DNA of 64,000 nt, taken from the IMG/VR virus record IMGVR_UViG_3300021963_000022. One strand, written 5' to 3'. The position numbers were made by a program, and so were the translations under genes. The stretch comes from a virus (taxonomy: Duplodnaviria > Caudoviricetes). Each line of letters opens with the position of its first letter. The first letter of the stretch is position 1. The notes under the pieces are model-generated. The model had not been told where the DNA came from, did no database searches, and saw only the letters and a list, made by a program, of their open reading frames with translations. Shown one piece after another: positions 1,006 through 48,300 of the stretch.

Positions 1006-1542
1006 TTACCTTTTAATTCCATAAAAATACAAATCACAATGAGGTGAACCCACTTCAAATGTGTGCGAACTAAACATCTTATCAATGTCTAGGTTATCCC
1101 TGAAATCTTTTTCAGTTAGATTCTTGTAGTAGTCCCAACCTTTGTCTATAGTCAATGGACTATCGCTAGGTGATGTACGTGTAGTACCATGCTCGGGTCT
1201 ACCTGTTGTAGCACATGTCATAAATATCAATCCACCTGGCTTTGTCATACGATGCATGTTTACAAATGTTTCTACCCAATAAGGATTGTGTTCAAAACAT
1301 TCACAGCTACCCACTGTATCATATGTATTATCAGGATGATCTAAGGTTTGACCTTCACATACTAAATCAACATCTCTACCCTGTCCAACGTCAATACCTA
1401 AGTATTGGCAATGACTAAAAAACATTCGTATTGAGCCATTGATATTGAGACTACCTACTTCAAGTACATTGACATTAAAAAAATGTGTAGGGTACAGAAG
1501 TTTTAGTTTTTGTATATAGTTAAATTGTTGTTGATGTGCCAT
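1006..1542 (-). CDS. Class I SAM-dependent methyltransferase
   Basis: VLEVGS motif I, YLGID, FEH, LKPGG-like (TKPGGLI) motif. Confidence 0.8.
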   Translation of the reverse strand: MAHQQQFNYIQKLKLLYPTHFFNVNVLEVGSLNINGSIRMFFSHCQYLGIDVGQGRDVDLVCEGQTLDHPDNTYDTVGSCECFEHNPYWVETFVNMHRMTKPGGLIFMTCATTGRPEHGTTRTSPSDSPLTIDKGWDYYKNLTEKDFRDNLDIDKMFSSHTFEVGSPHCDLYFYGIKR

Positions 1543-1552
1543 TAAAATTCCT

Positions 1553-1628
1553 TGGAGCGGGCGAAGAGGCTCGAACTCTCGACATTTACCTTGGCAAGGT
1601 AATGCTCTACCAACTGAGCTACGCCCGC
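1553..1628 (-). tRNA. tRNA-Gly(GCC)
   Basis: Reverse complement folds as cloverleaf GCGGGCG...CTT GCC AAG...TTCGA...CGCCCGCTCCA. Confidence 0.95.
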
Positions 1629-1629
1629 A

Positions 1630-1779
1630 TTAACTTGGAATAACATGTGGTATATATGGTACATTACGTGGTCCATGTCGTTGTTCAAAAAGCTTTTTAG
1701 CTTCTTGTACGGTCGGTGCATACACACGATCTTTAGTATCACCTTGTGGTGTTCTAACTGTTGTTTCATACATTGGCAT
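1630..1779 (-). CDS. Small hypothetical protein (49 aa, MPMYETTVRTPQG...)
   Basis: Manual translation; fills the gap between two tRNAs exactly, unlike the track ORF 1542-1769 that reads through tRNA-Gly. Confidence 0.6.
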   Translation of the reverse strand: MPMYETTVRTPQGDTKDRVYAPTVQEAKKLFEQRHGPRNVPYIPHVIPS

Positions 1780-1793
1780 ATATTATTCCTATT

Positions 1794-1868
1794 TGGTACA
1801 TCGACACGGTTTCGAACCGCGGACCCTCTCCGTGTAAAGGAGACGCTCTACCCCTGAGCTATCGATGC
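1794..1868 (-). tRNA. tRNA-Val(TAC)
   Basis: Cloverleaf, loop TT TAC AC, T-loop TTCGAAA, 3' CCA. Confidence 0.93.
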
Positions 1869-1878
1869 CTTATTCTAT

Positions 1879-2058
1879 TTAACCACCCTGTGTGCTATCT
1901 TTAACTTTTGTTTCACTAACAATACGTTCAAATTCATCATCTTCGTTTTTGTGATCCTCAACAATTCTTGGATCAGGCTTACGAAAGATTAAGTCAAAGT
2001 TACTATCAAATGTCTTTAATGGGACACTAAATGGTCTTGGACTAGAACCCTTACTCAT
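1879..2058 (-). CDS. Small hypothetical protein (59 aa, MSKGSSPRPFSVPL...)
   Basis: Manual translation; ATG overlaps the upstream stop (ATGA coupling). Confidence 0.65.
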   Translation of the reverse strand: MSKGSSPRPFSVPLKTFDSNFDLIFRKPDPRIVEDHKNEDDEFERIVSETKVKDSTQGG

Positions 2059-2219
2059 TTGTTATTAGTCTTTCCAGAACCACGTGAATTACTTTGTTCA
2101 ATCACAGCAAAACTGCGAATGAATGCACCACGTTCATGTGCGTCACGAATTTTTGCCGCGGCACGTTTAACTGTCTTTGAAACTTTCACTGCTTTCGCAT
2201 CATATCCTCTGCATGTCAT
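2055..2219 (-). CDS. Small basic hypothetical protein (54 aa, MTCRGYDAKAVK...)
   Basis: Manual translation; AAGGA Shine-Dalgarno upstream. Confidence 0.6.
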   Translation of the reverse strand: MTCRGYDAKAVKVSKTVKRAAAKIRDAHERGAFIRSFAVIEQSNSRGSGKTNNK

Positions 2220-2241
2220 AATATTTCCTTTTTAATTAAAT

Positions 2242-2319
2242 TGGTCGGAATGGTGGGATTCGAACTCACGACCCTCTGCTCCCAAAGCAGATGCGCTAAC
2301 CAGACTGCGCTACACTCCG
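2242..2319 (-). tRNA. tRNA-Pro(TGG)
   Basis: Cloverleaf CGGAGTG..., loop TT TGG GA, 3' CCA. Confidence 0.95.
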
Positions 2320-2326
2320 AATATTC

Positions 2327-2647
2327 TTACCAGTAGTACCAGTGTGGCTTACGGCTCACACTAGGGTAATCAATGATATCCAAATCATTGATATCTACAT
2401 TCAATACAATTTTCTCCCACTGACGACCTTTTGCTCGTTGTGGTTGATTCATCATTTCACGAACCCACCACATGGGAGTGCTCATCCAGTGATACTCTGT
2501 ATCAACTTTTTTTTTCTTTTTTGTTAAAACCCCGGGGTATTGTAAATAGTCAATATACTTACGATTACCAATGAGGTAATATTTGTAATCCCAATCTTCT
2601 TCAGGGAATCTGAGTTTACTGGGACGATCTTTGTACGTTCTAGACAT
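2327..2647 (-). CDS. Hypothetical protein (106 aa, basic, Trp-rich)
   Basis: ORF with AGGAG SD between tRNAs. Confidence 0.7.
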   Translation of the reverse strand: MSRTYKDRPSKLRFPEEDWDYKYYLIGNRKYIDYLQYPGVLTKKKKKVDTEYHWMSTPMWWVREMMNQPQRAKGRQWEKIVLNVDINDLDIIDYPSVSRKPHWYYW

Positions 2648-2696
2648 AAAGTTCTCCTTATCTAAAATCGCATATTGACCTCGCTTTCTTAATGGT

Positions 2697-2771
2697 TGGT
2701 TGCGGGGGACGGATTCGCACCGCCGATCTTCAGCTTATGAGACTGATGAGTTACTACTTCTCCACCCCACG
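2697..2771 (-). tRNA. tRNA-Met(CAT), initiator-like, atypical
   Basis: C1:A72 mismatch, loop CT CAT AA, CCA; T-loop reads TGCGAAT and the anticodon stem lacks the three G:C pairs. Confidence 0.8.
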
Positions 2772-2794
2772 GTATATATTGTTATGATGTGAAT

Positions 2795-2971
2795 TTATGC
2801 TACAATAGGACGAAACTCAACCTTGAGTCCGTCTTCAACGTTGAAGTCTGATAGCAAACCGTTTGCTTTGGCAATATTTATTTCTTGCCAATAGTCTTTG
2901 GGTTGATAGCTATCACCCGTAACAGTTATTGTTTTATAAATTTTATCATTTATTAAAATTTTTACTCGCAT
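2795..2971 (-). CDS. Small hypothetical protein
   Basis: ORF; start placed at ATG 2971, 5 nt below a GATAAATA motif. Confidence 0.6.
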   Translation of the reverse strand: MRVKILINDKIYKTITVTGDSYQPKDYWQEINIAKANGLLSDFNVEDGLKVEFRPIVA

Positions 2972-2989
2972 AATACTATTTATCATATC

Positions 2990-3065
2990 TGGTGGAGGAT
3001 ACAGGGATCGAACCTGCGACCTATTGCTTGCAAAGCAACCGCTCTCCCAACTGAGCTAATCCCCC
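2990..3065 (-). tRNA. tRNA-Ala(TGC)
   Basis: GGGGGAT acceptor, loop TT TGC AA, CCA. Confidence 0.95.
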
Positions 3066-3070
3066 TAATT

Positions 3071-3155
3071 TGGTACGAGTGGCCGGAATCGAACCGGCAC
3101 ACCTTTCGGCGAGAGATTTTAAGTCTCTTGTGTCTACCTATTTCACCACACTCGC
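3071..3155 (-). tRNA. tRNA-Leu(TAA)
   Basis: Class II cloverleaf with variable arm, loop CT TAA AA, CCA. Confidence 0.95.
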
Positions 3156-3156
3156 A

Positions 3157-3321
3157 TTATCTCACAAATGCCTGAAAGTAATATGTAGTTGGGTTTAATG
3201 CATACCAACTACGAACCACACTGACACCACCTTGCGGTTGCCAGCCTTCAGACAATAATTCTGCTACTAGTTTATGAAATTCATCATAACTAGCATTTAT
3301 AACCTTATACTCTGTTATCAT
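3157..3321 (-). CDS. DUF1737-like small protein (54 aa)
   Basis: MITEYKVI...LVAELLSEGWQPQGGV resembles the YK.I...V...L..GW...GG pattern; upstream part of the track ORF is tRNA. Confidence 0.6.
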   Translation of the reverse strand: MITEYKVINASYDEFHKLVAELLSEGWQPQGGVSVVRSWYALNPTTYYFQAFVR

Positions 3322-3326
3322 AACTT

Positions 3327-3411
3327 TGGTGCTCCAGGTCGGACTCGAACCGACACGCCTTTCGGCACTGGCTTCTAAGACCAGCGTGGCTACCAATTAC
3401 ACCACCAGAGC
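3327..3411 (-). tRNA. tRNA-Leu(TAG)
   Basis: Class II cloverleaf, loop CT TAG AA, CCA. Confidence 0.95.
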
Positions 3412-3437
3412 AATTAAACTTTTTAAAGAACATACAT

Positions 3438-3466
3438 AGTATATAACAATAATCATATACTGTCAA
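3438..3466 (-). promoter_or_regulatory. sigma70-type promoter
   Basis: TTGACA-17 nt-TATACT upstream of tRNA-Leu(TAG). Confidence 0.8.
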
Positions 3467-3543
3467 ACATTTTGGGTTAGAAGAACTCAGACGTATAATA
3501 ATCATTTACCGGTTAGTTATCACAGAGGTCCAAGCCTTGTTAT

Positions 3544-3619
3544 TGGAGCGGGAGGCGAGAGTCGAACTCGTCTATTTCTGCTTGGAAGGCAGACGTGTAA
3601 CCAAAAACACTTCACCCGC
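3544..3619 (-). tRNA. tRNA-Gly(TCC)
   Basis: Cloverleaf GCGGG..., loop CT TCC AA, CCA. Confidence 0.9.
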
Positions 3620-4154
3620 GTTGATCCTTTTCTTGCCATTTTTTCTTAATAGCATCTGATATCTTTCTTTTATGTTCTTCTGACTTTGGTGGTCTTGATT
3701 TATATTTTGTACCTAATTTAGATTCTGAAATATTCATACGAACTTCATCGGTCATTTTAGGTGCTGTACCATTCTTACGTCTTGCAATCAAGACTTCTGA
3801 CAACCTATCTCTGGTTTCTTGACTATGGTGTTTACCTAACATCTTAGGCATACCCGACTTGTTTATATAATCGAAGCCACCAAAACCACCTCTACGAATA
3901 TTGTAAACATCTTCCCTTAATAGGAATTCATCATTTACAAGTTCTTTTTCCCTAGCAAACATTTCTTCTGCTGTATCAAAATATTCTAAAATATCTTTTT
4001 TAAAATTTTCAATTCCATATTTGTCTTTTGCATAATTTAAGATTTTACCGGATCCCATGTAACCATCATTTAAATTCTTAGTTTTATGAGTGCCTATATA
4101 AATTTTGTTGTCTAACAAATTAGTAATTTGGTATATGTAATAATAGTATTTCAT
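3612..4154 (-). mobile_element. GIY-YIG (Seg-like) homing endonuclease with NUMOD3-like repeats
   Basis: YIYQITN...KIYIG...GYMGSG...R...YN catalytic domain; HSQETRDRLS and KSEEHKRKIS repeats; stop codon lies inside tRNA-Gly(TCC). Confidence 0.88.
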
Positions 4155-4222
4155 ACATTTATTTATCAATAATGTGTAATCTGCTGTTTTACCACTATAC
4201 GAACCCCGCTCATAAATACTTT

Positions 4223-4387
4223 ATGCATACATATGACGCTATCACAGCTACGGGATTATTGATACACTTATCAATGACCGACGATGCTGTGTGTTACATC
4301 CTTGTACACAATTTACAATCCAATACAACTGTAATAAAATTTTTTACCAATATTGAACCGGCATTAGATTTTATTCATTCATTGTAA
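4223..4387 (+). CDS. Small hypothetical protein
   Basis: ORF antisense to the array; ATG 4 nt after CATAAATA. Confidence 0.55.
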   Translation: MHTYDAITATGLLIHLSMTDDAVCYILVHNLQSNTTVIKFFTNIEPALDFIHSL

Positions 4388-4389
4388 TT

Positions 4390-4466
4390 TGGTGCGCCCA
4401 CCTGGATTTGAACCAGGGACCAACGGCTTATGAGGCCGCTGCTACTAACCACTGAGCTATAAGCGC
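4390..4466 (-). tRNA. tRNA-Ile2(CAT), probable lysidine acceptor
   Basis: Loop CT CAT AA; D and T arm sequence (GCTCAGTGGTTAG..TTGGTC.CTGGTTCAA.TCCAG) resembles enterobacterial tRNA-Ile2. Confidence 0.8.
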
Positions 4467-4474
4467 ATGTTCTT

Positions 4475-4503
4475 ATTATATATCAATTAAGATATGTTGT
4501 CAA
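4475..4503 (-). promoter_or_regulatory. sigma70-type promoter (perfect consensus)
   Basis: TTGACA-17 nt-TATAAT. Confidence 0.88.
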
Positions 4504-4509
4504 TTTATT

Positions 4510-4602
4510 TGGTACCCCCGCCGAGAGTCGAACTCGGATGAACCAATTATCTGTTGCTTACGGGATATAAATCCGCCGTTTTAACCATTAAACTACAGGG
4601 GC
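4510..4602 (-). tRNA. tRNA-Ile(TAT) with long variable region
   Basis: GCCCCTG acceptor, loop TT TAT AT, ~22-nt variable region, CCGAG TTCGACT CTCGG T arm, ACCA. Confidence 0.8.
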
Positions 4603-4607
4603 AATTA

Positions 4608-5090
4608 TTACTTCATAGATTGTACAAATTCAGTAGAACCTATCGTATACCATGCACCATCTACTTGCCATCTTACGTTTGGTATCTTTCCTTGCAGGTA
4701 TTGCATTATAATATAAGACAATAGTTTTGAATCCATCTTTTGACCCATTTCTATAAGATTGAGAAAATAGTGTCCATGCTGTTCACTAACATTCATCAAT
4801 ACTTTAGATTGACTAGGTTTCATCCATTCAGGAAATATTTCTGGATGCATTAACCATGCACATTTATAAGATACGCAAGGATTTTCAGGTCTATCATTGT
4901 ATATTGTACAGCCATTACTACCTTTGTAATGGCAAGGCATTCCGTTAAAAAAATGGTGACCGTATGCTTCACCGCTTAACCAACCTTCACAACATGCGGT
5001 ACAACCATCACATTTTCTATCTATAACAGGTTTAGTTTTCTCTAAAGTGTTAGCATCAACTATGGGAATTGTTTTCTTTTTTTTAGACAT
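4608..5090 (-). CDS. YkgJ-like Cys-cluster (Zn/Fe-chelating) protein
   Basis: CDGCTACC...C...CTIYNDRP..PC..YKC pattern. Confidence 0.75.
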   Translation of the reverse strand: MSKKKKTIPIVDANTLEKTKPVIDRKCDGCTACCEGWLSGEAYGHHFFNGMPCHYKGSNGCTIYNDRPENPCVSYKCAWLMHPEIFPEWMKPSQSKVLMNVSEQHGHYFLNLIEMGQKMDSKLLSYIIMQYLQGKIPNVRWQVDGAWYTIGSTEFVQSMK

Positions 5091-5126
5091 GCATTATTTA
5101 TATAGTGCAAGCATGCCTGATAATTT

Positions 5127-5200
5127 TGGCATCCCCCCAAGGACTCGAACCTTGACTAACGGTTTTGGAGACCGGTATGCTGCCATTACATTAGGGAGAT
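5127..5200 (-). tRNA. tRNA-Trp(CCA)
   Basis: Loop CT CCA AA, G73, CCA. Confidence 0.92.
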
Positions 5201-5204
5201 AAGT

Positions 5205-5393
5205 TTATGATTTTGTATCTATGTTTTGACCTTTACTATGAGTAGGTTCTATTTCACCTACTATATTGTACAGATATTGTACAACTTCAATAATTTGTTT
5301 ATTAGTTACAGGATCATTTATATCTTTATATACAGTAAGTCTCTGTTGGTTATTAACCATGTCCCAAGCTGTAGATATACTTTGTACTATCAT
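5205..5393 (-). CDS. Small hypothetical protein
   Basis: ORF; TATAAATA 5 nt upstream of ATG. Confidence 0.6.
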   Translation of the reverse strand: MIVQSISTAWDMVNNQQRLTVYKDINDPVTNKQIIEVVQYLYNIVGEIEPTHSKGQNIDTKS

Positions 5394-5411
5394 ACAACTA
5401 TTTATATAATT

Positions 5412-5489
5412 TGGAGCATCGGGTCAGATTTGAACTGACGATTTTACGGATTTGCAATCCGTTGCATTTGACCACTCTGCCACCGATGC
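5412..5489 (-). tRNA. tRNA-Cys(GCA)
   Basis: Loop TT GCA AA, U73, CCA. Confidence 0.93.
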
Positions 5490-5490
5490 A

Positions 5491-5692
5491 TATTGCTCTG
5501 CATCCCCCGGCGGTAATTATAGAGTATCAAGATATGACGCTATCATACCCATCACACACTCCTTCCACCCGCTTCCCGACAGGGACCGTTCTCGCACTGC
5601 CAGCGGCCTTTCGGTTTAAAGACTACCACCCGTAGTTGTCACACTACTTCTCATCGTGTGGGTCACACTATCCGGAGACACCCGGAACGTTC
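5491..5692 (-). ncRNA. Candidate structured ncRNA (~200 nt)
   Basis: GC-enriched spacer with no credible ORF; hairpins TCCGG/CCGGA, GTAGT/ACTAC, CC-GAAA-GG, TCCC/GGGA. Confidence 0.55.
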
Positions 5693-5780
5693 TGGTGGAG
5701 AGTGTGGGATTCGAACCCACGCACCCATTTCTGGATGACAGATTAGCAATCTGCTGGTTTAACCACTCACCCAACTCTCC
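5693..5780 (-). tRNA. tRNA-Ser(GCT)
   Basis: Class II cloverleaf, loop TT GCT AA, CCA. Confidence 0.95.
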
Positions 5781-5787
5781 TAATACT

Positions 5788-5864
5788 TGGCGCACCGTAG
5801 GGGACTCGAACCCCTGACCCCCGCCGTGACAGGGCGGTGCGCTAACCAACTGCGCTAACGGTGC
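5788..5864 (-). tRNA. tRNA-Asp(GTC)
   Basis: Loop CT GTC AC, G73, CCA. Confidence 0.95.
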
Positions 5865-5937
5865 ATAAGTAGAATAGGACACCCCTTTGGCCTAGGTCGA
5901 TTAAGAGTACGCCTGCCCAGCGACTCTCCTATATTCT

Positions 5938-6022
5938 TGGTGGAGATTACTGGGATCGAACCAGTCGTGCCATAAGGCGGCGGATTTACAGTCCACTGCA
6001 TCACCATTGATGCTTCATCTCC
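5938..6022 (-). tRNA. tRNA-Tyr(GTA)
   Basis: Class II, loop CT GTA AA, CCA. Confidence 0.93.
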
Positions 6023-6026
6023 AAGA

Positions 6027-6340
6027 TGAGTTACGGTTGCAAGACCTAGTGTCTCATTACTGAGAGAAGTGTCAGGGCGATGTAACTCAAAAATTAGTAT
6101 AACATAGATGTGTATAATATTAGGGTTGTTGTATACATCTATGTTATGTATTAGTATAAGCTACTGGTTTCCATGCCAGCCCTTAATTGAGCGGTTACTC
6201 TGTCCATCTCTTTTATTCTAACGTCTGTGTGCAGAGAGATACTGCCTATCAGATTCAGAGTAATTAACTCGCTAACGGTCTTCTGCCACCGGATCTCTAT
6301 CATTAATCAAACGCTATTTTAACGAAAATAGTAACGGGAT
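6027..6340 (-). ncRNA. Candidate structured ncRNA segment(s) between tRNA-Glu and tRNA-Tyr
   Basis: IRs 6027-6034/6082-6089, 6099-6111/6135-6147, 6195-6202/6256-6263 plus inner hairpins; no ORF. Confidence 0.55.
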
Positions 6341-6344
6341 TCTT

Positions 6345-6419
6345 TGGAAGAGCATAGGAGAATCGAACTCCTCTTCTTAGGATGAAAACCTAATGTCCTA
6401 ACCGATAGACGAATGCTCC
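6345..6419 (-). tRNA. tRNA-Glu(TTC)
   Basis: Loop TT TTC AT, CCA. Confidence 0.92.
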
Positions 6420-6421
6420 AT

Positions 6422-6547
6422 GTTATTAGTTTTGCTGACGCACTATTTGCTATGCTCAACGGAATTGCCAGCTGGACGTACCGTTTATATACATAGTTAC
6501 TTAGAGTTGACGTTTACTCAATGGCTTACATCAGCAAAACTAATAAC
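6422..6547 (-). ncRNA. Candidate structured ncRNA closed by a 17-bp perfect helix
   Basis: gttattagttttgctga (6422-6438)/tcagcaaaactaataac (6531-6547) with inner stems CTATG/CATAG, ACGG/CCGT. Confidence 0.6.
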
Positions 6548-6549
6548 AC

Positions 6550-6798
6550 ACTATATGAAAACACACTATGGGAACTATTAAACAAATAATCAGTACCGTC
6601 TACTGATGCAATGTCATTCGTCATTACTGCCTAACTGCCCGTCACGTTAAACAATATTGCTATTGTCGGTACGCTTCTTGTACTCTATGCGAAGCCAGTC
6701 CGTCAACTGGTTATGCTTCCATAGAGTACCTAACGGATCAGGTAACCCTTAATATGTTTACATATAGTCCCTGTAACTTAAACAGGGCTATATGAAAA
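6550..6798 (-). ncRNA. Candidate multi-stem ncRNA (~220-250 nt)
   Basis: Closing helix 6550-6563/6755-6768; inner stems GTACTCTATG/CATAGAGTAC, CCAGT/ACTGG, TCAGTA/TACTGA; directly below two sigma70 promoters. Confidence 0.6.
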
Positions 6799-6855
6799 AT
6801 TAAATTTTAAAGAACTTTGTTGATTAGTGCGATGACTTTTTCAACTCATGCTATG

Positions 6856-6884
6856 ATTGTATCATAACTACCATTTATTGTCAA
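6856..6884 (-). promoter_or_regulatory. sigma70-type promoter
   Basis: TTGACA-17 nt-TACAAT. Confidence 0.8.
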
Positions 6885-6937
6885 ATTCTTTTTTGTGTCT
6901 CTGTTTCCAAGAACTTGTTCAATCAATCTATACATAG

Positions 6938-6966
6938 AGTATAGCAGATTGAGGATTTATTGTCAA
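6938..6966 (-). promoter_or_regulatory. sigma70-type promoter (tandem with 6856-6884)
   Basis: TTGACA-17 nt-TATACT; shares TTTGACAATAAAT with the 6856 and 10295 promoters. Confidence 0.8.
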
Positions 6967-7020
6967 ATTTACGATTTTAGTACTTAATACTACATAAAAT
7001 ACTTGATGATAAATATTCTT

Positions 7021-7620
7021 ATGGAACAACCTACCTTATATGATGAACTAAAATTACCCAAAAATTGTACGTCTGAAGAAATCAAACAAAAATACAAAAT
7101 TTTAGCACAATTACATCATCCTGATAAAGGAGGAGATGTGGAAAAGTTCAAACAAATTAAATTCGCATATGAAGTGTTGAGTGATCCAATTAAACGTAAA
7201 CACTATGATTCAACCGGCGATCATTACAATAATATTAACATCGACAGTGAAGTTATGGGCAGATTATCTGTTATGGTTTCACATTTTATTCAACATATTA
7301 ATCCAGAGTTTGATGATTTAATATTAAAAATGAAAATTGAGATCCGTGCATTACATCAACTGACAACAGATGCTATTGTAGAATGTAATGAATTAATCGC
7401 CAAATATAATATTATTTCTAACAAGATTAGATTAAAAAAAGAAGGCGAGAACTTACTAAAGTTGGTTGTTGATAAACAAGTATTAGGACTTCATAATGAA
7501 GTAATTAACCACAAAAGAGGTTTAATAGTTTTTTCTAGAATGTTAGAAGTATTAGACGATTACCACTACAGTAGTGATGAATGGCGATTACTACTAGAAA
7601 ATGTTGATGGTCCGGCGTAG
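7021..7620 (+). CDS. J-domain (DnaJ class C) co-chaperone
   Basis: LYDELKL...IKQKYKILAQLHHPDKGG...AYEVLSDP.KR..YD; HPD motif intact; helical C-terminus. Confidence 0.9.
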   Translation: MEQPTLYDELKLPKNCTSEEIKQKYKILAQLHHPDKGGDVEKFKQIKFAYEVLSDPIKRKHYDSTGDHYNNINIDSEVMGRLSVMVSHFIQHINPEFDDLILKMKIEIRALHQLTTDAIVECNELIAKYNIISNKIRLKKEGENLLKLVVDKQVLGLHNEVINHKRGLIVFSRMLEVLDDYHYSSDEWRLLLENVDGPA

Positions 7621-7682
7621 AGGAATCGAACCTCTATTGATAGCTTAGAAGGCTACTGTATGATCCATTATACTAACGCCAG
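7608..7682 (-). tRNA. tRNA-Arg(TCT)
   Basis: Loop CT TCT AA, CCA; 3' end overlaps the J-domain gene stop on the opposite strand. Confidence 0.92.
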
Positions 7683-7692
7683 AGTATTTGAT

Positions 7693-7768
7693 TGGCTCCC
7701 CTACGTGGGCTCGAACCACGGACATTTTGATTAACAGTCAAACGCTCTACCGACTGAGCTATAGGAGA
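7693..7768 (-). tRNA. tRNA-Asn(GTT)
   Basis: Loop CT GTT AA, G73, CCA. Confidence 0.95.
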
Positions 7769-7775
7769 ATAATTT

Positions 7776-7850
7776 TGGTGCCGACTATCGGATTCGAACT
7801 GATGACCTATCGCTTACAAGGCGATTGCACTACCACTGTGCTAAGTCGGC
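7776..7850 (-). tRNA. tRNA-Thr(TGT)
   Basis: GCCGACT acceptor, loop CT TGT AA, CCA. Confidence 0.95.
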
Positions 7851-7867
7851 ATATTTTATTTAAGCGT

Positions 7868-7896
7868 ATTGTATCATAGGAAAACTTTTATGTCAA
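7868..7896 (-). promoter_or_regulatory. sigma70-type promoter
   Basis: TTGACA-17 nt-TACAAT; -35 lies at the end of the HNH gene. Confidence 0.8.
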
Positions 7897-7897
7897 C

Positions 7898-8458
7898 CTA
7901 ATTCTGCCAAATCCTAGAATGTTTGGGTACTCCTGCTAACAAATATTCCATTTGGTCAGCAAGTATTGTTCTATGTTGTAATATCATATTTTCATAATGT
8001 GAAGGTACGTACGGAGAATAAAGCAATTCCATACGTACTTCTTTTAAACTTTTATGACCTTTTTTGCTGTTACAATCTTTACAAGCAGTAACAACATTCA
8101 TCCAAGTGTTTTCACCACCTTTGCTTTTTGGAACAATATGGTCTCTACTTAACATATGATAGTTAGGAAAGTGTTCACCGCAGTATGCACATACATGACG
8201 GTCACGACCGAACAATGTTTTATTGCTTAATGCTACACATGCATGTTTGTATGGATTAAATCCGTGACCTTTGATAGCGATGATACTAGATGCTTCTAAG
8301 TAGCTTAATGTACCGTCGTTTTGTATACCACCGCGATATTTAGCCACAATATTACCCATTGACCATGCTATGGCATCTTTTGCTTTATAGGTAATTGCGT
8401 CATCATTTGATATCCATTGCCGGGGAACTCCCGAGATATCTAGTGCTAGAACAGCCAT
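7898..8458 (-). CDS. HNH endonuclease (McrA/HNH_5-like)
   Basis: RDRHVCAYCG...DHIVPKSKGG..TWMNVVTACKDCNSKKG; AAGGAG SD before MAVLALD. Confidence 0.88.
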   Translation of the reverse strand: MAVLALDISGVPRQWISNDDAITYKAKDAIAWSMGNIVAKYRGGIQNDGTLSYLEASSIIAIKGHGFNPYKHACVALSNKTLFGRDRHVCAYCGEHFPNYHMLSRDHIVPKSKGGENTWMNVVTACKDCNSKKGHKSLKEVRMELLYSPYVPSHYENMILQHRTILADQMEYLLAGVPKHSRIWQN

Positions 8459-8505
8459 GTAGTACTCCTTTTCTGTTATTATCACTAATTGTATTTAATG
8501 CCATA

Positions 8506-8580
8506 TGGCGGGTCCTGCAGGAATTGAACCTACATCCCGAAGTTCGAAGCATCGTATTCTATCCATTGAACTAAGGACCC
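8506..8580 (-). tRNA. tRNA-Arg(TCG)
   Basis: Loop CT TCG AA, CCA. Confidence 0.9.
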
Positions 8581-8586
8581 TATAAA

Positions 8587-8736
8587 GGTGGGAGCCTAAC
8601 TATCTTATTGTTAATAAGCCTCGTTAGATTGTCTCGTATAGGCAAGTTTACACACCCGTCAATCATACTATAGTGTCATCACAGTTAACCCCACTGTGAC
8701 TAGATTGACAGGGACTCAAACCTATCGTCTATCCCA
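8587..8736 (-). ncRNA. Candidate structured ncRNA (~150 nt)
   Basis: Nested stems TGGGA/TCCCA, TAGG/CCTA, CCCTGTCAATC/GATTGACGGG, TCACAGT/ACTGTGA; no ORF. Confidence 0.55.
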
Positions 8737-8740
8737 TAAC

Positions 8741-8814
8741 TGGCAGAGGGTACAAGAATCGAACTTGTGATCTCGGAATCAAAATCCGATGTTATGCCAT
8801 TTAACTAACCCCCA
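8741..8814 (-). tRNA. tRNA-Gln(TTG)
   Basis: Loop TT TTG AT, unpaired U1, G73, CCA. Confidence 0.93.
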
Positions 8815-8821
8815 ATAAATC

Positions 8822-8898
8822 TGGTAGCCTCACTGTGACTCGAACACAGGACCCCCGCCTTATCAAGACGGTGCTCTAACCAACTGAGCTATGAGGCT
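8822..8898 (-). tRNA. tRNA-Ile(GAT)
   Basis: Loop TT GAT AA, CCA. Confidence 0.95.
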
Positions 8899-8902
8899 AT
8901 AA

Positions 8903-8977
8903 TGGTGGATGTAAGTAGATTTGAACTACTGACCTATTCCGTATGAAGGAATTGCACTACCGCTGTGCTATACATCC
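8903..8977 (-). tRNA. tRNA-Met(CAT), elongator-like
   Basis: Paired 1:72, loop TT CAT AC, CCA. Confidence 0.85.
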
Positions 8978-9056
8978 TGGTACCCCTGATCGGGTTTGAA
9001 CCGACAACTGGCGCTCTCTCTTGAAGAACCGACTTTTCCTATTTGTCTACAGGGGC
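8978..9056 (-). tRNA. Atypical tRNA, best fold gives AAG (Leu) anticodon
   Basis: GCCCCTG acceptor, Leu-like D loop, stem GTTCT/AGAGC with loop TC AAG AG (C33), short variable region, ACCA. Confidence 0.65.
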
Positions 9057-9062
9057 ATTACT

Positions 9063-9139
9063 TGGGGTGCTTGATGGGATTCGAACCCACGTATATCGGA
9101 ATCACAATCCGAGGTCTTAACCGCTTGACGACAAGCACC
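9063..9139 (-). tRNA. tRNA-His(GTG)
   Basis: Encoded G-1:C73 8-bp acceptor, loop TT GTG AT, CCA. Confidence 0.95.
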
Positions 9140-9152
9140 ATGGTGGAAACGG

Positions 9153-9242
9153 TGGAGGAAGATAACAGAATCGAACTGTCACCTATTCATCATAAGTGGG
9201 ACGGTTTTCAAGACCGTGTCCGCGCCATGCAGCCTATCTTCC
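9153..9242 (-). tRNA. tRNA-Ser(TGA), U73 discriminator
   Basis: GGAAGAT/ATCTTCC acceptor, loop CT TGA AA, long variable arm, TCCA. Confidence 0.82.
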
Positions 9243-9686
9243 ATTGTTTCTATTTTTAGACTTATATGTAGGGAGTTGCGAATCGCAATTACTACACACA
9301 AATCTTAAATTTTCTAAACGATTGTCATTATTAATCCCGTTAATATGGTCAAGTATTAACGGCATTGGTTTATCTTGCCATTCAGGTCCTATATTACAGC
9401 AAGCACATTTGTACTCTATTAAGTTTTTTGATTTTATTCTTGCTTTAATACTATGCCGTGCATATGTAGAATTTTCACAAAACACCTCTGCATCGGGATA
9501 TAATATATCCCATTTAGCATGACGCCCTAATTTTTTACCTGTATTCCAAGCAATATGTCCTTTTTGTGCTCCTGCTTTAGCTGAATGCTTGTGTTTAATT
9601 TTATTTGGATTACTATGACATGACATTTCATGTGCTTTTAGCGATCCTTTGTTATTTATTTCTCTGTTACAATGTGGGCAGTTCAT
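9234..9686 (-). mobile_element. HNH homing endonuclease with N-terminal zinc-finger-like segment
   Basis: CPHC...H..SCH; CACC...LILDHINGINNDNRLENLRFVCSNCDSQ; stop codon inside tRNA-Ser(TGA). Confidence 0.85.
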
Positions 9687-9773
9687 AATAGTTTCCTTAC
9701 TCTTATTTATGCTTTATAGCAATAATTTGACATTTTGATGCTATAAACCTGACTCTGCCACGTTTCCATAATA

Positions 9774-9850
9774 TGGTAGAAGCAGTGGGATTCGAACCCA
9801 CGACTCTCGGATTAAAAGTCCGATACTCTAGCCAACTGAGTTATGCTTCC
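9774..9850 (-). tRNA. tRNA-Lys(TTT)
   Basis: Loop CT TTT AA, CCA. Confidence 0.95.
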
Positions 9851-9856
9851 ATATAT

Positions 9857-9933
9857 TGGTGCGACCGGAAGGACTTGAACCTCCGACTCCCTGTTTCGTA
9901 GACAGGTACTCTAATCCACTGAGTTACGGTCGC
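9857..9933 (-). tRNA. tRNA-Arg(ACG)
   Basis: Loop CT ACG AA, CCA. Confidence 0.93.
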
Positions 9934-9998
9934 ATTCTAAAACATACTTTGGGGATTTCACTTAACGCCTCCCTAACTCAAAGTATGTTTTAGAATGC
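9932..9998. repeat. 20-bp perfect inverted repeat abutting the tRNA-Arg(ACG) 5' end
   Basis: gcattctaaaacatactttg (9932-9951)/caaagtatgttttagaatgc (9979-9998). Confidence 0.85.
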
Positions 9999-10288
9999 CG
10001 TGTATCTCTACACGACACGATAGGGTTATACCCTACCCAGTAGTCTTACTCTTTGTGTTATCGCCACAAATTTCATATATACTGTCCGCCCATTCTATAC
10101 ATTTTGCGCTGTATCACGGCTCTCGTTGCCTGTTCACGCTGTCTATCAAGTGATACCAGTCTGCTCGTTAGCTTTCTTAGTAGCCATATGATAGATCCTA
10201 GCACGGTCGATTTTATTCTGTATCAACTGTGCTAAATCTTCCTTTGTCAAAACATGATTGCTAAACCAATCTCGTTTGTCTTCAGAAG
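9999..10288 (-). ncRNA. Candidate structured leader/ncRNA heading the tRNA operon
   Basis: Minus-strand hairpins CGTGTA-GAGA-TACACG (GNRA), TAGGG/CCCTA, TTTGTG/CACAAA, TCTATCA/TGATAGA, TAGCAC/GTGCTA; begins just below the promoter at 10295. Confidence 0.5.
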
Positions 10289-10294
10289 TTTTGT

Positions 10295-10323
10295 ATTGTA
10301 TCTCTTTGTCCATTTATTGTCAA
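10295..10323 (-). promoter_or_regulatory. sigma70-type promoter heading the tRNA/ncRNA array
   Basis: TTGACA-17 nt-TACAAT. Confidence 0.8.
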
Positions 10324-10351
10324 ATTTCCTTTTGTTGTATTTTTACAACGC

Positions 10352-10390
10352 TAACAAAAAACCCTGAGAGTCTTTCGATTCCCAGGGTCT
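10352..10390 (-). terminator. Rho-independent terminator
   Basis: AGACCCTGGGAATC-GAAA-GACTCTCAGGGTTTTTTG on the minus strand. Confidence 0.8.
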
Positions 10391-10417
10391 TGATAATGTC
10401 GTTATGATGTTAACTTG

Positions 10418-10552
10418 TTACCTAGGCCCCGGGCTATACTCTAGTGTATCATTGCCGCGAATACTTGTTGGATATACTGGTGCAAAGGATACTGTGGCGA
10501 TTGACTGCCATTGTCCCATATGCTTCAGCGATTTACAAGTTTTATTCATCAT
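10418..10552 (-). CDS. Short leader-peptide-like ORF (44 aa)
   Basis: MMNKTCKSLKHMGQWQSIATVSFAPVYPTSIRGNDTLEYSPGPR immediately before the terminator; CTAAATA upstream. Confidence 0.45.
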   Translation of the reverse strand: MMNKTCKSLKHMGQWQSIATVSFAPVYPTSIRGNDTLEYSPGPR

Positions 10553-10697
10553 AGTCTTTTATTTAGTCCTGGTTGTAAATTAGTGCTAAATTGCACTTTT
10601 TCAATTCATGCTGAAGTATAACAGACTATTGATTAAACGTCAACCTTTAGTTTACCCAAATAGTTATACAGCTACAACAACAGTCACTAAATATTTC

Positions 10698-12248
10698 ATG
10701 CTATTCATACCTACTAACTACGAAACCGTCTTCCTTAGCTATGACGAACCAAATTGCGAAAGTAATTACAAACGTCTATTAGAACTATGTCCAACTGCTA
10801 AAAGAGTACACGGAGTCAAGGGATCTGATACTGCACACAAAAAAGTAGCTGAACTATGTACAGGTGATCGTGTTAACATCATCGACGGTGATAACTATGT
10901 GCGGTCTGACTTCTTTACAAACGAGTATAACATAGATGACTTTAATTGTAAAGTTGTTAGCTTTAGTACTAGAAATCATATCAACGGACTACAATATGGA
11001 AACGGTAGTATCAAATCATGGCCCGTTACTCTACTAAAAGAAATGCGTACCCATGAAAATACAAATAGTAATACTACATTAGTAGACTTTGACTTTGGTA
11101 ACTATCTGCAGGTTAACACTCTAGGTAGCTGTGTTATTAACAACGGTAGCCCATTACAAGCGTGGCGTGCTGGATTCCGTGAAGGTGTTAAACTATGTAT
11201 GAGGAATGGATTAGTTGTATCTAGTCTAGAGGAAATCGACTGGCGTAACTTTGATAGACTATGGAACTGGATGCACATAGGCAGTGATGTAGTCAACGGA
11301 CTATGGGCTATACACGGGGCACGTTTTGGATGCTGGCAAGCATTACTTAACTTCGACTTGAAAAATCTACATGACTTTAACTATATAGATAATATGTTCT
11401 ATGACCTTACGTTTAGCGATTCAAAATTTAGAGATAGATTAGAAACAGAATGTAACAGAATTGGTCAACTAATTCGTGTAAAAACAAACGACCGTAGAAT
11501 AAAAAACGTATACAGCAATGGAGATAGCAAACTGTACAAGGAACAAGTAAAACCTATATTACGCTGTCCTGACAACAAACCATATGACATTGTATTCATT
11601 AGCTATAATGAACTCAATTGTGACAAAAACTACAAACTTTTGTTAACAAGATTCCCTAGAGCTAAACGCATACATGGAGTCAAGGGAATACACAATGCAC
11701 ACATAGAAGCGGCAAAACTGTGTGATACTGATTACTTTTGGGTAGTTGATGGTGATGCTGAAATTGTAGATGACTTTAAGTTTGACTATGTTGTACCTTT
11801 CTATGATAACTTATGTACACGTGTTTGGAGAGCAAAGAATCCAGTCAATGACTTGGTATATGGATATGGTGGAGTAAAACTATTACCCAGAACAGCAACG
11901 GTACGAATGAATACAGACAGACCTGATATGACTACAAGCATATGTAAGAACTATGAACCCATAATGGTTGTTAGTAACATAGCACAATTTAATACTGACC
12001 CATTCAATACATGGAGATCGGCATTCAGAGAATGTACTAAACTAAGTAGTCAGGTCATACCCGGACAAATTGATGACGAAACAAAGAAACGATTAGACAT
12101 ATGGTGTACAACGGGTACTGACAGTTATGCAATCGATGGTGCTATCAAAGGACGTGAGTACGGTGAACAGCATAGACATAATATGAATATGCTACAAAAG
12201 ATAAATGACTTTGTGTGGATGAAGGAACAGTATGACAGATTTCACTGA
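10698..12248 (+). CDS. Tandem-duplicated GT-A-like (DxD) protein
   Basis: Two homologous halves VF.SY.E.N...NY..L....P.AKR.HGVKG...AH...A.LC.....(I/V)DGD; start 4 nt after CTAAATA. Confidence 0.65.
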   Translation: MLFIPTNYETVFLSYDEPNCESNYKRLLELCPTAKRVHGVKGSDTAHKKVAELCTGDRVNIIDGDNYVRSDFFTNEYNIDDFNCKVVSFSTRNHINGLQYGNGSIKSWPVTLLKEMRTHENTNSNTTLVDFDFGNYLQVNTLGSCVINNGSPLQAWRAGFREGVKLCMRNGLVVSSLEEIDWRNFDRLWNWMHIGSDVVNGLWAIHGARFGCWQALLNFDLKNLHDFNYIDNMFYDLTFSDSKFRDRLETECNRIGQLIRVKTNDRRIKNVYSNGDSKLYKEQVKPILRCPDNKPYDIVFISYNELNCDKNYKLLLTRFPRAKRIHGVKGIHNAHIEAAKLCDTDYFWVVDGDAEIVDDFKFDYVVPFYDNLCTRVWRAKNPVNDLVYGYGGVKLLPRTATVRMNTDRPDMTTSICKNYEPIMVVSNIAQFNTDPFNTWRSAFRECTKLSSQVIPGQIDDETKKRLDIWCTTGTDSYAIDGAIKGREYGEQHRHNMNMLQKINDFVWMKEQYDRFH

Positions 12249-45301: not shown

Positions 45302-48300
45302 TTACTTAGTAATACCGAAGTGGTTGTAACCATTTGATACTGTGCCAGCAGATATACCTACTGCAGTAATTATAGGTCTTATTGGACGGTTGTCATTGAA
45401 TCCCCATTCATATAATACATTGTTAGGATCAACTAACAATGTATTATTAAAGTTAGCTGATACTTGTGTCCAAGATGATGAGCCAATTTGAGTAGGTATA
45501 CTGTACATATTAGGTGGTACAAGTGATTGATTATTACCTATTTGTACCGGGCTTGATCTACTAATTCTATCGTTCACCCCAAGCTGTCCACTATTATTTA
45601 GACCCCATGTAGCCATTTTACCATCAACTATAATCAATCCTTGACTTGCATTATTACTAACGGATAATATTGGACTAACATAAGTACCTATTTGCACAGG
45701 GGCACTACGGGGTACCTGATCACCTAATCCAAGTTGACCACTAGCATTAATACCCCAACCAAATAAGTAACCATCACTACGTATACCTAATTGATATCCG
45801 TTTTGCGTTGAAATATTAGTCCAGCTATCAGATGTTGTAGGTAAGAATACTGGACTTGTGGCAGCTAATACGGAATCAATACCTAATTGACCTGTACTAT
45901 TATTTCCCCATGTGTACAATCCATATAATAAATCAAGACCTGTAGTAGAGGCGCTGCCGGCTGATACCATAGCCCAACTACTTGTACCAATTTGTACTGG
46001 ACTACTACGATTTGAAGTATTAGCATCACCTGTTTGTCCGTTTGAATTCAGTCCCCATGCAAATAACAATTTATCACTGCGTATTCCTACCGTATGATTA
46101 AAACCAGAACTAACAGATGTCCAGCTAAATGCACCAAGTTGTACAGGGCTACTACGCCAACTTATATCATTTAATCCTAGCTCGCCAGAATTGTTTCCTC
46201 CCCAAACGTACAATAGTCCAGTTGAGGTAATTGCGGCTGTGTGGCTCCATCCTGCTGAAATAACACTCCAGCTACTACTACCGATCTGTACCGGACTACT
46301 TCTAGATAATTGTGCATTATCACCTATTTGACCATTAGTACCTAGACCCCACATAAACAATGCGCCATCACTTCTTATGGCTCCACGTCCTCTATTAGAA
46401 ATACTGAGCCATGTACTACCCGTTGCAATTTGCACTGGACTATTTCTGGATATTACATTATTTTGTGCTAACTCACCATTTGTGTTTGCTCCCCAAGCAA
46501 ATAGTCTATTAGTAGCATCAAGAGCCAAAAAGGCAGCACCACCTAGTGCTGATGCTACTGATATCCAACTACTTGTACCAACTTGTACTGGACTACTTCT
46601 GTTAACTGAATCACCTAATCCCAGTTGACCTGAATCATTAGAACCCCAACTCCATAATGTACCATCACTACGTATTGCAGCCATTGATGAAGTGCCGACA
46701 GATACCTGAGTCCAACTACTTGTACCAACTTGTACTGGACTACTACGATGTATTGTATTATTTAATCCTAATTGGCCTTGTATGTTTTGGCCCCACATAA
46801 ATAGCGCACCATCACTACGAATGGCTGCACTTGTAAGGCTATTTATATTAACTTGACTCCAGCTAAACGCAGCTGGTTTACTTGTATTGGTTAAGTAAGT
46901 TTGTTGTATTTGGGCACTAGTAAATGAGTTAACTTGTACAGGGCTACTTCTATGAATTACTGATCTATCACCTAGTTGACCATTAGAGTTGCCACCCCAA
47001 GTAAACAATAAATTGTTTGAATTAATAGCTCCTACGGTAGAACCACCTGCACTAACCATAGTCCAGCTTGCACCAATTTGTACTGGACTACTTCTACTTA
47101 ATTGTGCATTATCACCTATTTGACCAGTAGTACCTAGACCCCATACAAACAATCTCTTGTCTACTGTCAATGCTGTGTTGTAAGAGTTACCGGCACTAAC
47201 TTGTGACCAGCTACTTGTACCAATTTGAATAGGTACTGATTTACTAATAATAGTATTATCACCTAATTGACCATTAGTACCTAATCCCCAAGCCCATAGT
47301 GTATTATCACTACGTATGCCAATTGTTGTGGCTGCACCTGCACTAATTGCATTCCATGATTCAGTTACCGATCGGACAAACATCGGGCTACTTCTAGCTC
47401 CTATTGTTTCACCTAATCCAAGTTGTCCACTAGAATTTTGACCCCAAATATAAAGTTGTTTATTTGTAAATGAGATTGCCATAATTACTCCAGGATTAGT
47501 TCCTGAACTAACTTTTGACCAGGTGCTTGTACCAATTTGTACAGGACTACTACGATGCACTGTATCATTTAATCCTAATTGACCGTTAGTATTAAGTCCC
47601 CAAGCCCATAATGTGTTATCCGCTTTTATAGCAGAAGTTGACCAAGCTGAGCCAGCAGATACACTTGTCCAACTACTTGTACCAACTTGTACCGGGACAA
47701 GCGCACTGGAGGAGTTGCCGGTGCCAAGAGCGCCAAACACGCCAAAACCACAAGCCCATAGCGAGCCGGTGGTTTTTATAGCCATAAAATATCCTGCACC
47801 AGACGAGACTTGTTGCCAATTAGTATCAGTACCAACTTGTACTGGGCTACTGCGTGGGATACCAGACTGATTTTGACCGAGCGCGCCGGATGCCGCATCT
47901 CCCCAAGACCATAATGTTCCATCTAAGCGTATGCCGTACATATTTGTACTGCCATCTGGGCTGCCTGCACTGATTTGGGACCAGCTACTTGTACCAACTT
48001 GTACAGGACTACTACGATTTATTGTATCATTTAAACCTAATTGACCAGTAGCGTTATTTCCCCAACTAAATAATGCACCATCAATACGTAAGGCGGCTGC
48101 TATTCCAGTTCCTGCATTAGTACTTCCAGTTCCTCCTGAAATCATAGTCCAGCTACTTGTACCAACTTGCACTGGACTACTGCGATGTTCTCGGTCATTT
48201 AAACCAAGCTGTCCATTGACATTAGCTCCCCAACTCCATAACGTGTTGTCTATACGAATTGCATAGGTTGCTCCATTACCGACAGATACCTGAGTCCAAC

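Follow-up and report, generated by a model that had tools for sequence, protein, structure and literature searches.

A predicted phage tRNA operon with interleaved structured RNA genes, including two new RNA families of uncultured freshwater jumbo phages

What fills the gaps between the transfer RNAs (tRNAs) of a phage tRNA array? Non-tRNA stable RNAs in such clusters have gone unexplained since phage T4, and the array described here holds a whole set of candidates. It lies in a 64,000-nucleotide stretch of viral DNA (Duplodnaviria; Caudoviricetes; IMG/VR record IMGVR_UViG_3300021963_000022), called the window at its full length, and runs along the minus strand from 1553 to 9933 with 27 tRNAs identified by ARAGORN. 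A preliminary description of positions 5491-10288, made from the sequence alone, had proposed that seven spacers between same-strand tRNAs encode unannotated structured RNAs; ARAGORN and Rfam place these spacers between minus-strand tRNAs where it had put them, and all seven have homologues in related IMG/VR jumbo-phage contigs. We consider it likely, though well short of certain, that an uncultured freshwater jumbo phage here carries a tRNA operon with several promoters, its tRNAs interspersed with independent genes for structured RNAs that resemble cassettes and whose products are released by tRNA punctuation; two of these genes, E7 and E5a, would yield stable trans-acting RNAs.

Related loci were reached through an open reading frame (ORF) for a J-domain protein (DnaJ, PF00226; 7003-7620), which lies mid-array on the opposite, plus strand and is kept in relatives, making it usable as a synteny anchor; used as a query, it retrieved IMG/VR contigs of 137-349 kb that carry arrays syntenic with this one. 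Complete relatives measure 345-525 kb, and in a megablast search GenBank phages showed no resemblance to the region except single tRNAs. These genome sizes, together with the syntenic contigs and the lack of a GenBank look-alike, point to an uncultured jumbo phage as the source, and most DNA runs containing the region come from freshwater or lake samples. The two elements that carry most of the argument are laid out as follows.

E7: 5491-5692, minus strand; about 200 nt, with its 5' end right after the CCA of tRNA-Ser(GCU) and its 3' end 4 nt before tRNA-Cys.
E7 3' domain: 5502-5586, minus strand; a long irregular hairpin with an outer helix (5581-5586/5502-5507), a GCGG/CCGC helix (5569-5572/5510-5513) and the base of apical hairpin H7 (5556-5561/5522-5527).
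E5a: 6150-6344, minus strand; about 190 nt, right after the CCA of tRNA-Glu; at least four hairpins, plus an H-type pseudoknot in which loop 6235-6240 pairs with 6206-6211.

Comparison across copies shows the hallmarks of functional complex RNAs in both E7 and E5a, each of them a new RNA family. The 27-nt core of E7 occurs exactly in 102 IMG/VR contigs; compensatory changes are evident by eye among 61 distinct aligned copies, and a covariance model recovers 70 copies, eight of them without the exact core. Across these 70 copies, 99.1% of cells at predicted pairs can pair, a share that drops to 88.1% on shuffling and to 40-51% when the partners are slid. Double changes fall in 16 of 37 pairs (270 cells), and the covariation score of 0.324, which shuffling lowers to 0.114, is attained by none of 500 shuffles; this alignment was fitted to the model and so favours the model's structure, and the same helices come from an independent count on a MAFFT alignment. 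Single copies are present in four complete genomes of about 350 kb and two copies in a 524-kb genome. A small RNA-polymerase-omega-like ORF (MNKQLSSEDAVAAYGDRFEMVLAASQRARELKNG...) lies near relatives' tRNA arrays, about 1.1-1.3 kb downstream of E7 at locus L069 and nine more loci.

Because the outer helix, the GCGG/CCGC helix and H7 nest, the 3' half of E7 reads as one long irregular hairpin. The outer, long-range helix usually takes the form GUCCCU/GGGGAU (first base G or A; last U or C) and is re-coded elsewhere as GUCCUU/GAGGAC, GUCCUG/CAGGAU, GAACCU/GGGUUC, CCUCUCUG/CAGAGAGG and UUCUUUUUG/CAGAAAGAA; six versions were counted, and re-coding is complete in six diverged copies, those of loci L137, L151, L142, L128 and L158 among them. 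Inside it, the GCGG/CCGC helix is supported by two mutually dissimilar copies in which both bases of one pair have changed, turning C-G into U-A (pair C141-G201: CG 67, UA 2), and the innermost hairpin, H7, has double changes in five of the six pairs at its base. An alternative 8-bp helix, GGUGGUAG/UUACCGCC, was disfavoured, the double change C141U+G201A backing GCGG/CCGC. The internal loops are almost invariant, with GUCGGGAA opposite CG and GUGGAAGG opposite CUAUAAUUA. In the window, H7 contains a kink-turn (k-turn) motif, GAGUG-UGU-GA...GA-UACUC (C-stem, 3-nt bulge, tandem G-A/A-G), and several copies have a C/D-like GUGAUGA...CUGA there; since a regular helix substitutes in others, the k-turn is optional. 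In the 5' half, hairpins H1, H2 and H3 covary; H5 and a stem of 3 bp come after them, and a single double change suggests that the H2 loop (ACC) contacts G82-U84.

The core of E5a occurs in at least 119 IMG/VR contigs. Its 83 distinct copies have a mean identity of 87%, and four hairpins covary. In the pseudoknot, the loop of a GCAG...CUGC hairpin pairs with a segment just upstream of UGGACAGAG, and this pairing exists in at least seven complementary versions: UCUCA/UGAGA, UCUUU/AAAGA, UCCCU/AGGGA, UCUCU/AGAGA, UCCUU/AAGGA, UCCCA/UGGGA and UCCUA/UAGGA. Three of five complete relatives have one copy, the 524-kb genome has two, and one gave no match. Homology or base-pairing between E5a and E7 was considered and dropped, there being no covariance-model cross-match. 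Neither family has an Rfam match at E<=10 or a blastn match among 50,697 GenBank phage records. In 185,579 species representative genomes the E7 core has zero matches and the E5a core one (L228, 2965-2986), on a 3-kb contig of an uncultured cyanobacterium metagenome-assembled genome (Umea_bin-05048), which may be a phage fragment binned wrongly or else a faint pointer to the host, too weak for naming one.

Are these sequences present as RNA? Contigs of four metatranscriptomes from three studies were placed on positions 1400-10700 at >=88% identity, and depth was taken as contig mean depths summed over relatives, with tRNA bins contaminated by bacterial tRNAs. Summed depth in the four is 9536, 507, 19145 and 279 at E7 position 5597, and 7178, 16, 12800 and 15 at E5a position 6302. 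ORF bins (3577-3887, 6998-7619 and 9175-9796) reach only about 0-15, so DNA carry-over is not the explanation of the signal, and in two runs of one study E7 and E5a stand 100 to 1000 times above neighbouring ORFs. Contig cover of the bin of a further element, E2, is confounded by foreign tRNAs and we make no claim of its expression; array parts that drew no RNA contigs are not thereby silent. E7 and E5a probably accumulate as stable RNAs that would act in trans.

The other elements are listed here with the promoters and the one small ORF that they share the region with.

E1b: 9934-10075, minus strand; a run of hairpins including a GAGA tetraloop, with a terminal 16-20-bp AT-rich stem (9932-9998) and a variable loop.
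E2: 8587-8736, minus strand; 150 nt, flanked by tRNA-Gln and tRNA-Arg(TCG) and bearing a closing stem.
E3a: 6761-6794, minus strand; a conserved leader hairpin, CAUAUAGCCCUG...CAGGGACUAUAUG.
E3b: 6560-6760, minus strand; a cargo of about 200 nt with a G-U-rich closing stem, directly after E7 in other phages.
E4: 6422-6547, minus strand; a predicted multi-branch RNA of about 85 nt with a 21-23-bp AT-rich closing helix, ending 2 nt before tRNA-Glu.
E5b: 6099-6147, minus strand; a 19-bp AT-rich palindromic hairpin, in some relatives only.
E5c: 6023-6096, minus strand; a hairpin immediately 5' of tRNA-Tyr, closed by an 8-bp stem and bearing a GUAA tetraloop.
E6: 5866-5936, minus strand; 71 nt between tRNA-Tyr and tRNA-Asp, highly conserved in a narrow clade.
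Sigma70-type promoter: 10295-10323, minus strand; TTGACA-17-TACAAT, 11/12 consensus positions, preceding the block of tRNAs Arg(ACG)-Lys.
Tandem sigma70-type promoters: 6856-6966 (6966-6938 and 6884-6856), minus strand; predicted to drive the E3-E4-tRNA-Glu block.
ORF55: 10146-10313, minus strand; 55 codons, 168 nt, MDKEIQYKTSEDKRDWFSNHVLTKE..., with its ATG between the -35 and -10 of the 10323 promoter.

The slots that these elements occupy span 71-355 nt and, contrary to the first description, are not tRNA-sized. A general enrichment in GC had also been noted; it is clear only for E7 (0.53) and E6 (0.49), the other spacers having GC fractions of 0.38-0.43 over a background of about 0.36. Long AT-rich closing helices are present as described: inverted repeats of 20 nt at 100% complementarity in E1b (9932-9951 with 9979-9998), 18 nt at 100% in E4 (6421-6438 with 6531-6548) and 19 nt at 89% in E5b (6099-6117 with 6129-6147). 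The minus strand also has the GNRA loops described: that of E1b is GAGA, that of E5c GUAA and that of E7 helix H3 GUGA(CA). Folding energies of the minus strand, compared with dinucleotide shuffles, give z-scores of -7.7 for E1b, -6.9 for E3, -5.7 for E4, -3.5 for E5c, -2.7 for E2, -1.3 for E7, -0.4 for E6 and -0.3 for E5a. As the values for E7, E5a and E6 are near zero, their structure has to be judged by comparing copies, and the predicted structures of E7 and E5a rest on covariation, not on folding energy.

The test for covariation on related contigs that the preliminary description had proposed gave a positive result for E7, E5a, E2, E3b, E4, E5c and E1b. Compensatory pairs number five among 12 distinct copies of E1b, five among 27 of E2, seven among 17 of E3b, nine among 25 of E4 (from 44 loci, some of these pairs in the closing stem) and nine of 18 among 22 of E5c. 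The elements are also gained and lost independently: E4 is absent from locus L004, E2 from L003 and E5b from L005, and a short unrelated insert stands in place of the E3b cargo in L003 and L004. Distribution differs likewise for the exact cores: that of E7 is in 102 contigs, that of E5a in at least 119, that of E2 (an 18-mer) in 35 and that of E6 in 14. Since distributions, gain and loss, and neighbours all differ, the suggestion that the spacers are parts of one large RNA does not hold.

Presence and absence of this kind could also mark selection on DNA, the elements being palindromic mobile inserts akin to miniature inverted-repeat transposable elements, or scars of homing endonucleases. The HNH and GIY-YIG genes in the array and the perfect AT-rich inverted repeats would suit this explanation, as would E5b, a simple palindrome that L005 lacks. 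In the predicted pairs, however, G-U cells far outnumber A-C cells: 24 to 0 in E1b, 113 to 3 in E2, 83 to 3 in E3b and 48 to 3 in the fourth tally made for elements other than E7 and E5a. This excess argues for selection on the minus-strand RNA and not on a DNA palindrome. Compensatory changes, the pseudoknot and variable-length stem inserts preserve RNA pairing, and the elements reach high depth in RNA libraries, so that a DNA-level origin is largely refuted for E7, E5a, E2, E3b and E4 and very improbable overall.

Another possibility is that the spacers are small-protein genes or decayed tRNAs. ORF55 speaks for this, being intact and of equal length, free of indels and stops, in eight distinct homologues, and plus-strand stop-free stretches of up to 74 codons run across E7. 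Those plus-strand frames, however, are antisense artefacts that run into tRNAs; E7 covaries as RNA, and because its copies differ in length by non-multiples of three it is not coding. The tRNA model (RF00005) at E<=5 returns only the annotated tRNAs and 5941-6022 on the minus strand, a tRNA-Tyr(GUA) found by Rfam only (36 bits) that ARAGORN misses, with a syntenic tRNA-Tyr called in relative L005; no spacer matches it, which also leaves the idea that the elements are tRNA decoys without support. We give decayed tRNAs or small-protein genes scant probability as a general account. For ORF55 itself, the substitutions by codon position (89/66/85) show no third-position bias and no Pfam or PHROG family matches, and we regard it as probably a small protein gene, coding being likely and not certain. 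The description of the spacers as non-coding is therefore doubtful for 10146-10288, which lies inside ORF55. With its start inside the promoter, ORF55 would need read-through from upstream.

How would the elements be expressed and freed? Four minus-strand sigma70-type promoters with 11 of 12 consensus positions (10323-10295, 7896-7868, 6966-6938 and 6884-6856) bear out the promoters reported above the spacers. The total of promoter-like sites does not exceed that in shuffled sequence, and it is these four alone that are prominent. Their sequences are conserved among relatives, the tandem pair 6966/6884 being nearly invariant in L003-L005, and the TTGACAATAAATGG motif of the 10323 promoter recurs at 6884 and is conserved in L003. 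Transcription from these promoters would produce polycistronic precursors of tRNAs and structured RNAs. Each element would be a self-contained fold, mostly closed by a terminal helix and often filling the gap between tRNAs to within 0-3 nt, so that 3'-end processing of the preceding tRNA would free its 5' end and a host RNase P cut at the next tRNA its 3' end. In E1b, E4 and E5b, the AT-rich closing helices of 16-23 bp could plausibly be RNase III substrates or stabilising stems.

Gap counts show non-tRNA units abutting tRNA ends, the layout of a tRNA-punctuated precursor. Of 69 E7 copies, 35 begin no more than 3 nt from the 3' end of a same-strand tRNA, the tRNAs concerned being of eight identities, and 20 have a tRNA at most 10 nt beyond their own 3' end. 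E5a lies within 3 nt of a tRNA upstream in 54 and downstream in 61 of 83 copies. For E2 a gap this small is seen at one end in 20 and at the other in 22 of its 27 copies, beside a variety of tRNAs, and 23 of the 25 copies of E4 have their 3' end no farther than 10 nt from a tRNA. Judged by this layout, the elements behave like cassettes, tRNA-sized or larger, able to occupy any slot, and the arrangement fits release by RNase P and tRNA 3'-end processing, which would set the RNA ends. The proposed operon of tRNAs and non-coding RNAs (ncRNAs) is in this way upheld as far as RNA-level elements, covariation above controls and a strand set by G-U pairs are concerned; excision by tRNA processing is a deduction from the layout. 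Since none of the five complete relatives encodes RNase III, the Ro60 (TROVE) protein or RNase P RNA, host enzymes would have to do the processing; matches to the transfer-messenger RNA (tmRNA) model in these genomes are sub-threshold tRNA look-alikes. At two element junctions, 6555-6580 and 6785-6800 on the minus strand, the word UUUUCAUAUAG occurs, and GUGUGUU-type runs end several closing stems; both may be shared junction or processing signals.

The tight junctions also suit a purely local role, in which the elements are spacers acting in cis that insulate tRNAs from misfolding, offer sites for RNases P, E or III and are degraded after processing. Between closing stems and tRNA 5' ends lie 0-6 nt, the stem of E1b overlaps the first 2 nt of tRNA-Arg, and the loop cargo of E1b and E3 is swapped among relatives that keep the stems, all of which makes a cis-only role plausible for E1b, E3a, E5b and E5c. 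Such a role does not account for the invariant unpaired cores of 20-30 nt and conserved tertiary pairings of E7 and E5a, kept in more than 100 contigs, beside many different tRNAs or none, or for their RNA-library depth far above the flanks. As an explanation of the whole set we find it rather unlikely, and continue to prefer an operon whose RNA genes include trans-acting E7 and E5a.

Several known systems offer partial parallels. In T4, rnaC (species 1) and rnaD (species 2) are non-tRNA stable RNAs of about 120-140 nt that adjoin tRNAs on the same strand in a cluster with the GIY-YIG gene segB, the same location as that of the elements here; their function is, to our knowledge, still unknown. 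The window likewise has homing endonuclease ORFs amid its tRNAs, one GIY-YIG and two HNH (3612-4169, 7898-8485 and 9234-9686, minus strand), interleaved as segB is. Its array differs from the T4 cluster in holding many more elements, some of them pseudoknotted, from several families that are widespread in uncultured freshwater jumbo phages, and the E7 covariance model has no match in the T4 cluster at E<=10. Release of RNAs by tRNA punctuation of polycistronic transcripts is the mitochondrial model, and tRNA-flanked release is known for mascRNA and for engineered arrays of tRNAs and guide RNAs. The likeness here lies in non-tRNA RNAs 0-3 nt from tRNAs, so that RNase P and 3'-end cleavage would set their ends; the differences are the bacteriophage setting, the closing helices that many elements have of their own, copies that lack a flanking tRNA, and a case that is made from sequence layout.

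GOLLD (RF01998) and ROOL (RF03087), named in the preliminary description as large phage RNAs beside tRNAs, resemble the elements in being often phage-borne, near tRNAs, complex in fold, found in lake metagenomes and unexplained in function. They are 500-800 nt long, whereas the elements are separate cassettes of 70-200 nt with independent distributions, and the GOLLD and ROOL covariance models match neither at gathering score in the 64 kb nor at E<=5 in 5300-10600. Theta ribozymes, minimal relatives of the hepatitis delta virus (HDV) type, are small structured RNAs a few nt from phage tRNA ends with a proposed part in tRNA processing (PMC10879173). HDV-type Rfam models have no match at E<=5 in 5300-10600, and the helix order of E6 and E7, read by eye, is unlike the HDV order P1-P2-P3-P1'-P4-P2'; the comparison with theta ribozymes was made with these Rfam models and by eye. 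An HDV-like fold for E6 was dropped because no P1-P2-P3 order emerged on that reading. An Rfam 15 search of the spacers at gathering score and at E<=5, also among the checks first proposed, found no family in any spacer, only noise from microRNA, small nucleolar RNA and plastid untranslated-region models overlapping tRNAs. Full-text literature searches, whose scope did not extend to the supplements of the IMG/VR csRNA survey (PMC10690425), returned no description of the core sequences or of phage tRNA-array ncRNAs.

E7 shares short words (GAGAACGGUCC, GGGUGGUA, GGUCC..GGAAGC), as well as a k-turn and a link to tRNAs, with RNase P RNA, T-box RNAs, helix 8 of the signal recognition particle (SRP), YrlA and tmRNA. 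As an RNase P RNA (P2/P3/P4) it was rejected, since no covariance-model match was found in the window or in five complete relatives and the long-range helix encloses GCGG/CCGC, nested and not pseudoknotted, with a joining segment of 1-2 nt and no P1. A T-box was rejected as well, with no RF00230 match, no terminator after E7 and no antiterminator, and with downstream sequence that varies (tRNA, ncRNA or ORF). SRP helix 8 mimicry fails because in L142, L128 and L158 the 5' strand co-varies with the distal 3' tail and not with the local GGGA, and no SRP model matches. For YrlA or Y RNA the sole match is 18-bit noise over two tRNAs, and TROVE is absent from the five complete relatives. Nor do the elements match tmRNA, for which the Rfam models are silent as well.

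E7 has two invariant GGGUGG sites and ACC in two hairpin loops, a combination that calls to mind how RNase P and T-box RNAs touch the ends of tRNAs through GGU-ACC contacts. Our best guess is a tie to tRNA metabolism or translation, and E7 and E5a may be scaffolds of ribonucleoproteins (RNPs), or binders or catalysts linked to these processes. That one or both are new jumbo-phage RNA classes acting directly on tRNAs, as ribozymes or tRNA 3'-end binders, is a more specific proposal that we hold to be distinctly unlikely; if true, it would open a possible control over the maturation, repair or protection of the phage tRNA set during infection.

Several points weigh against the interpretation as a whole. 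No computed result points to a specific biochemical function, and the E7 neighbourhood has no recurrent partner protein gene, the top ORF cluster there being an antisense artefact. About half of the E7 copies lack a direct tRNA neighbour on at least one side, having other elements, ORFs or the end of the locus there, so that tRNA processing cannot be the sole maker of E7 ends. Expression is read from contig depth summed over relatives at >=88% identity, in which RNA ends are not visible, and the extreme depth is confined to the two runs of one study. E6, with seven distinct copies at 92% identity, shows no compensatory pair and is too invariant for its structure to be judged, and part of the E1 spacer is probably coding, given the intact, equal-length ORF55 homologues.

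Elsewhere in the window, two spacers beyond the studied interval, 1629-1793 and 1869-2241 on the minus strand, are conserved in 19 and 42 related loci, and the array therefore probably houses additional ncRNA families; spacers 2320-2696 and 2772-2989 have almost no homologues among the related loci fetched. The tRNA-Ile(UAU) at 4510-4602 (minus strand) is called at 93 nt, unusually long for type I, and may hold an insertion or intron. A radical SAM protein gene (PF04055; 12232-13209, plus strand) is the first in a long plus-strand gene block beside the array, and a single ORF of 4386 aa (45302-58462, minus strand) presumably encodes a giant virion-associated protein.

At least two of the elements are large, complex families with invariant cores, absent from Rfam and cultured phages, present in more than 100 contigs of uncultured freshwater jumbo phages and seemingly abundant in lake metatranscriptomes. 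RNAs with such properties have often proved to be ribozymes, RNP scaffolds or regulators. The alignments and the E7 covariance model render these families directly testable, and the tRNA-bounded cassettes suggest a general route by which phages may express small RNAs and free them from tRNA precursors.

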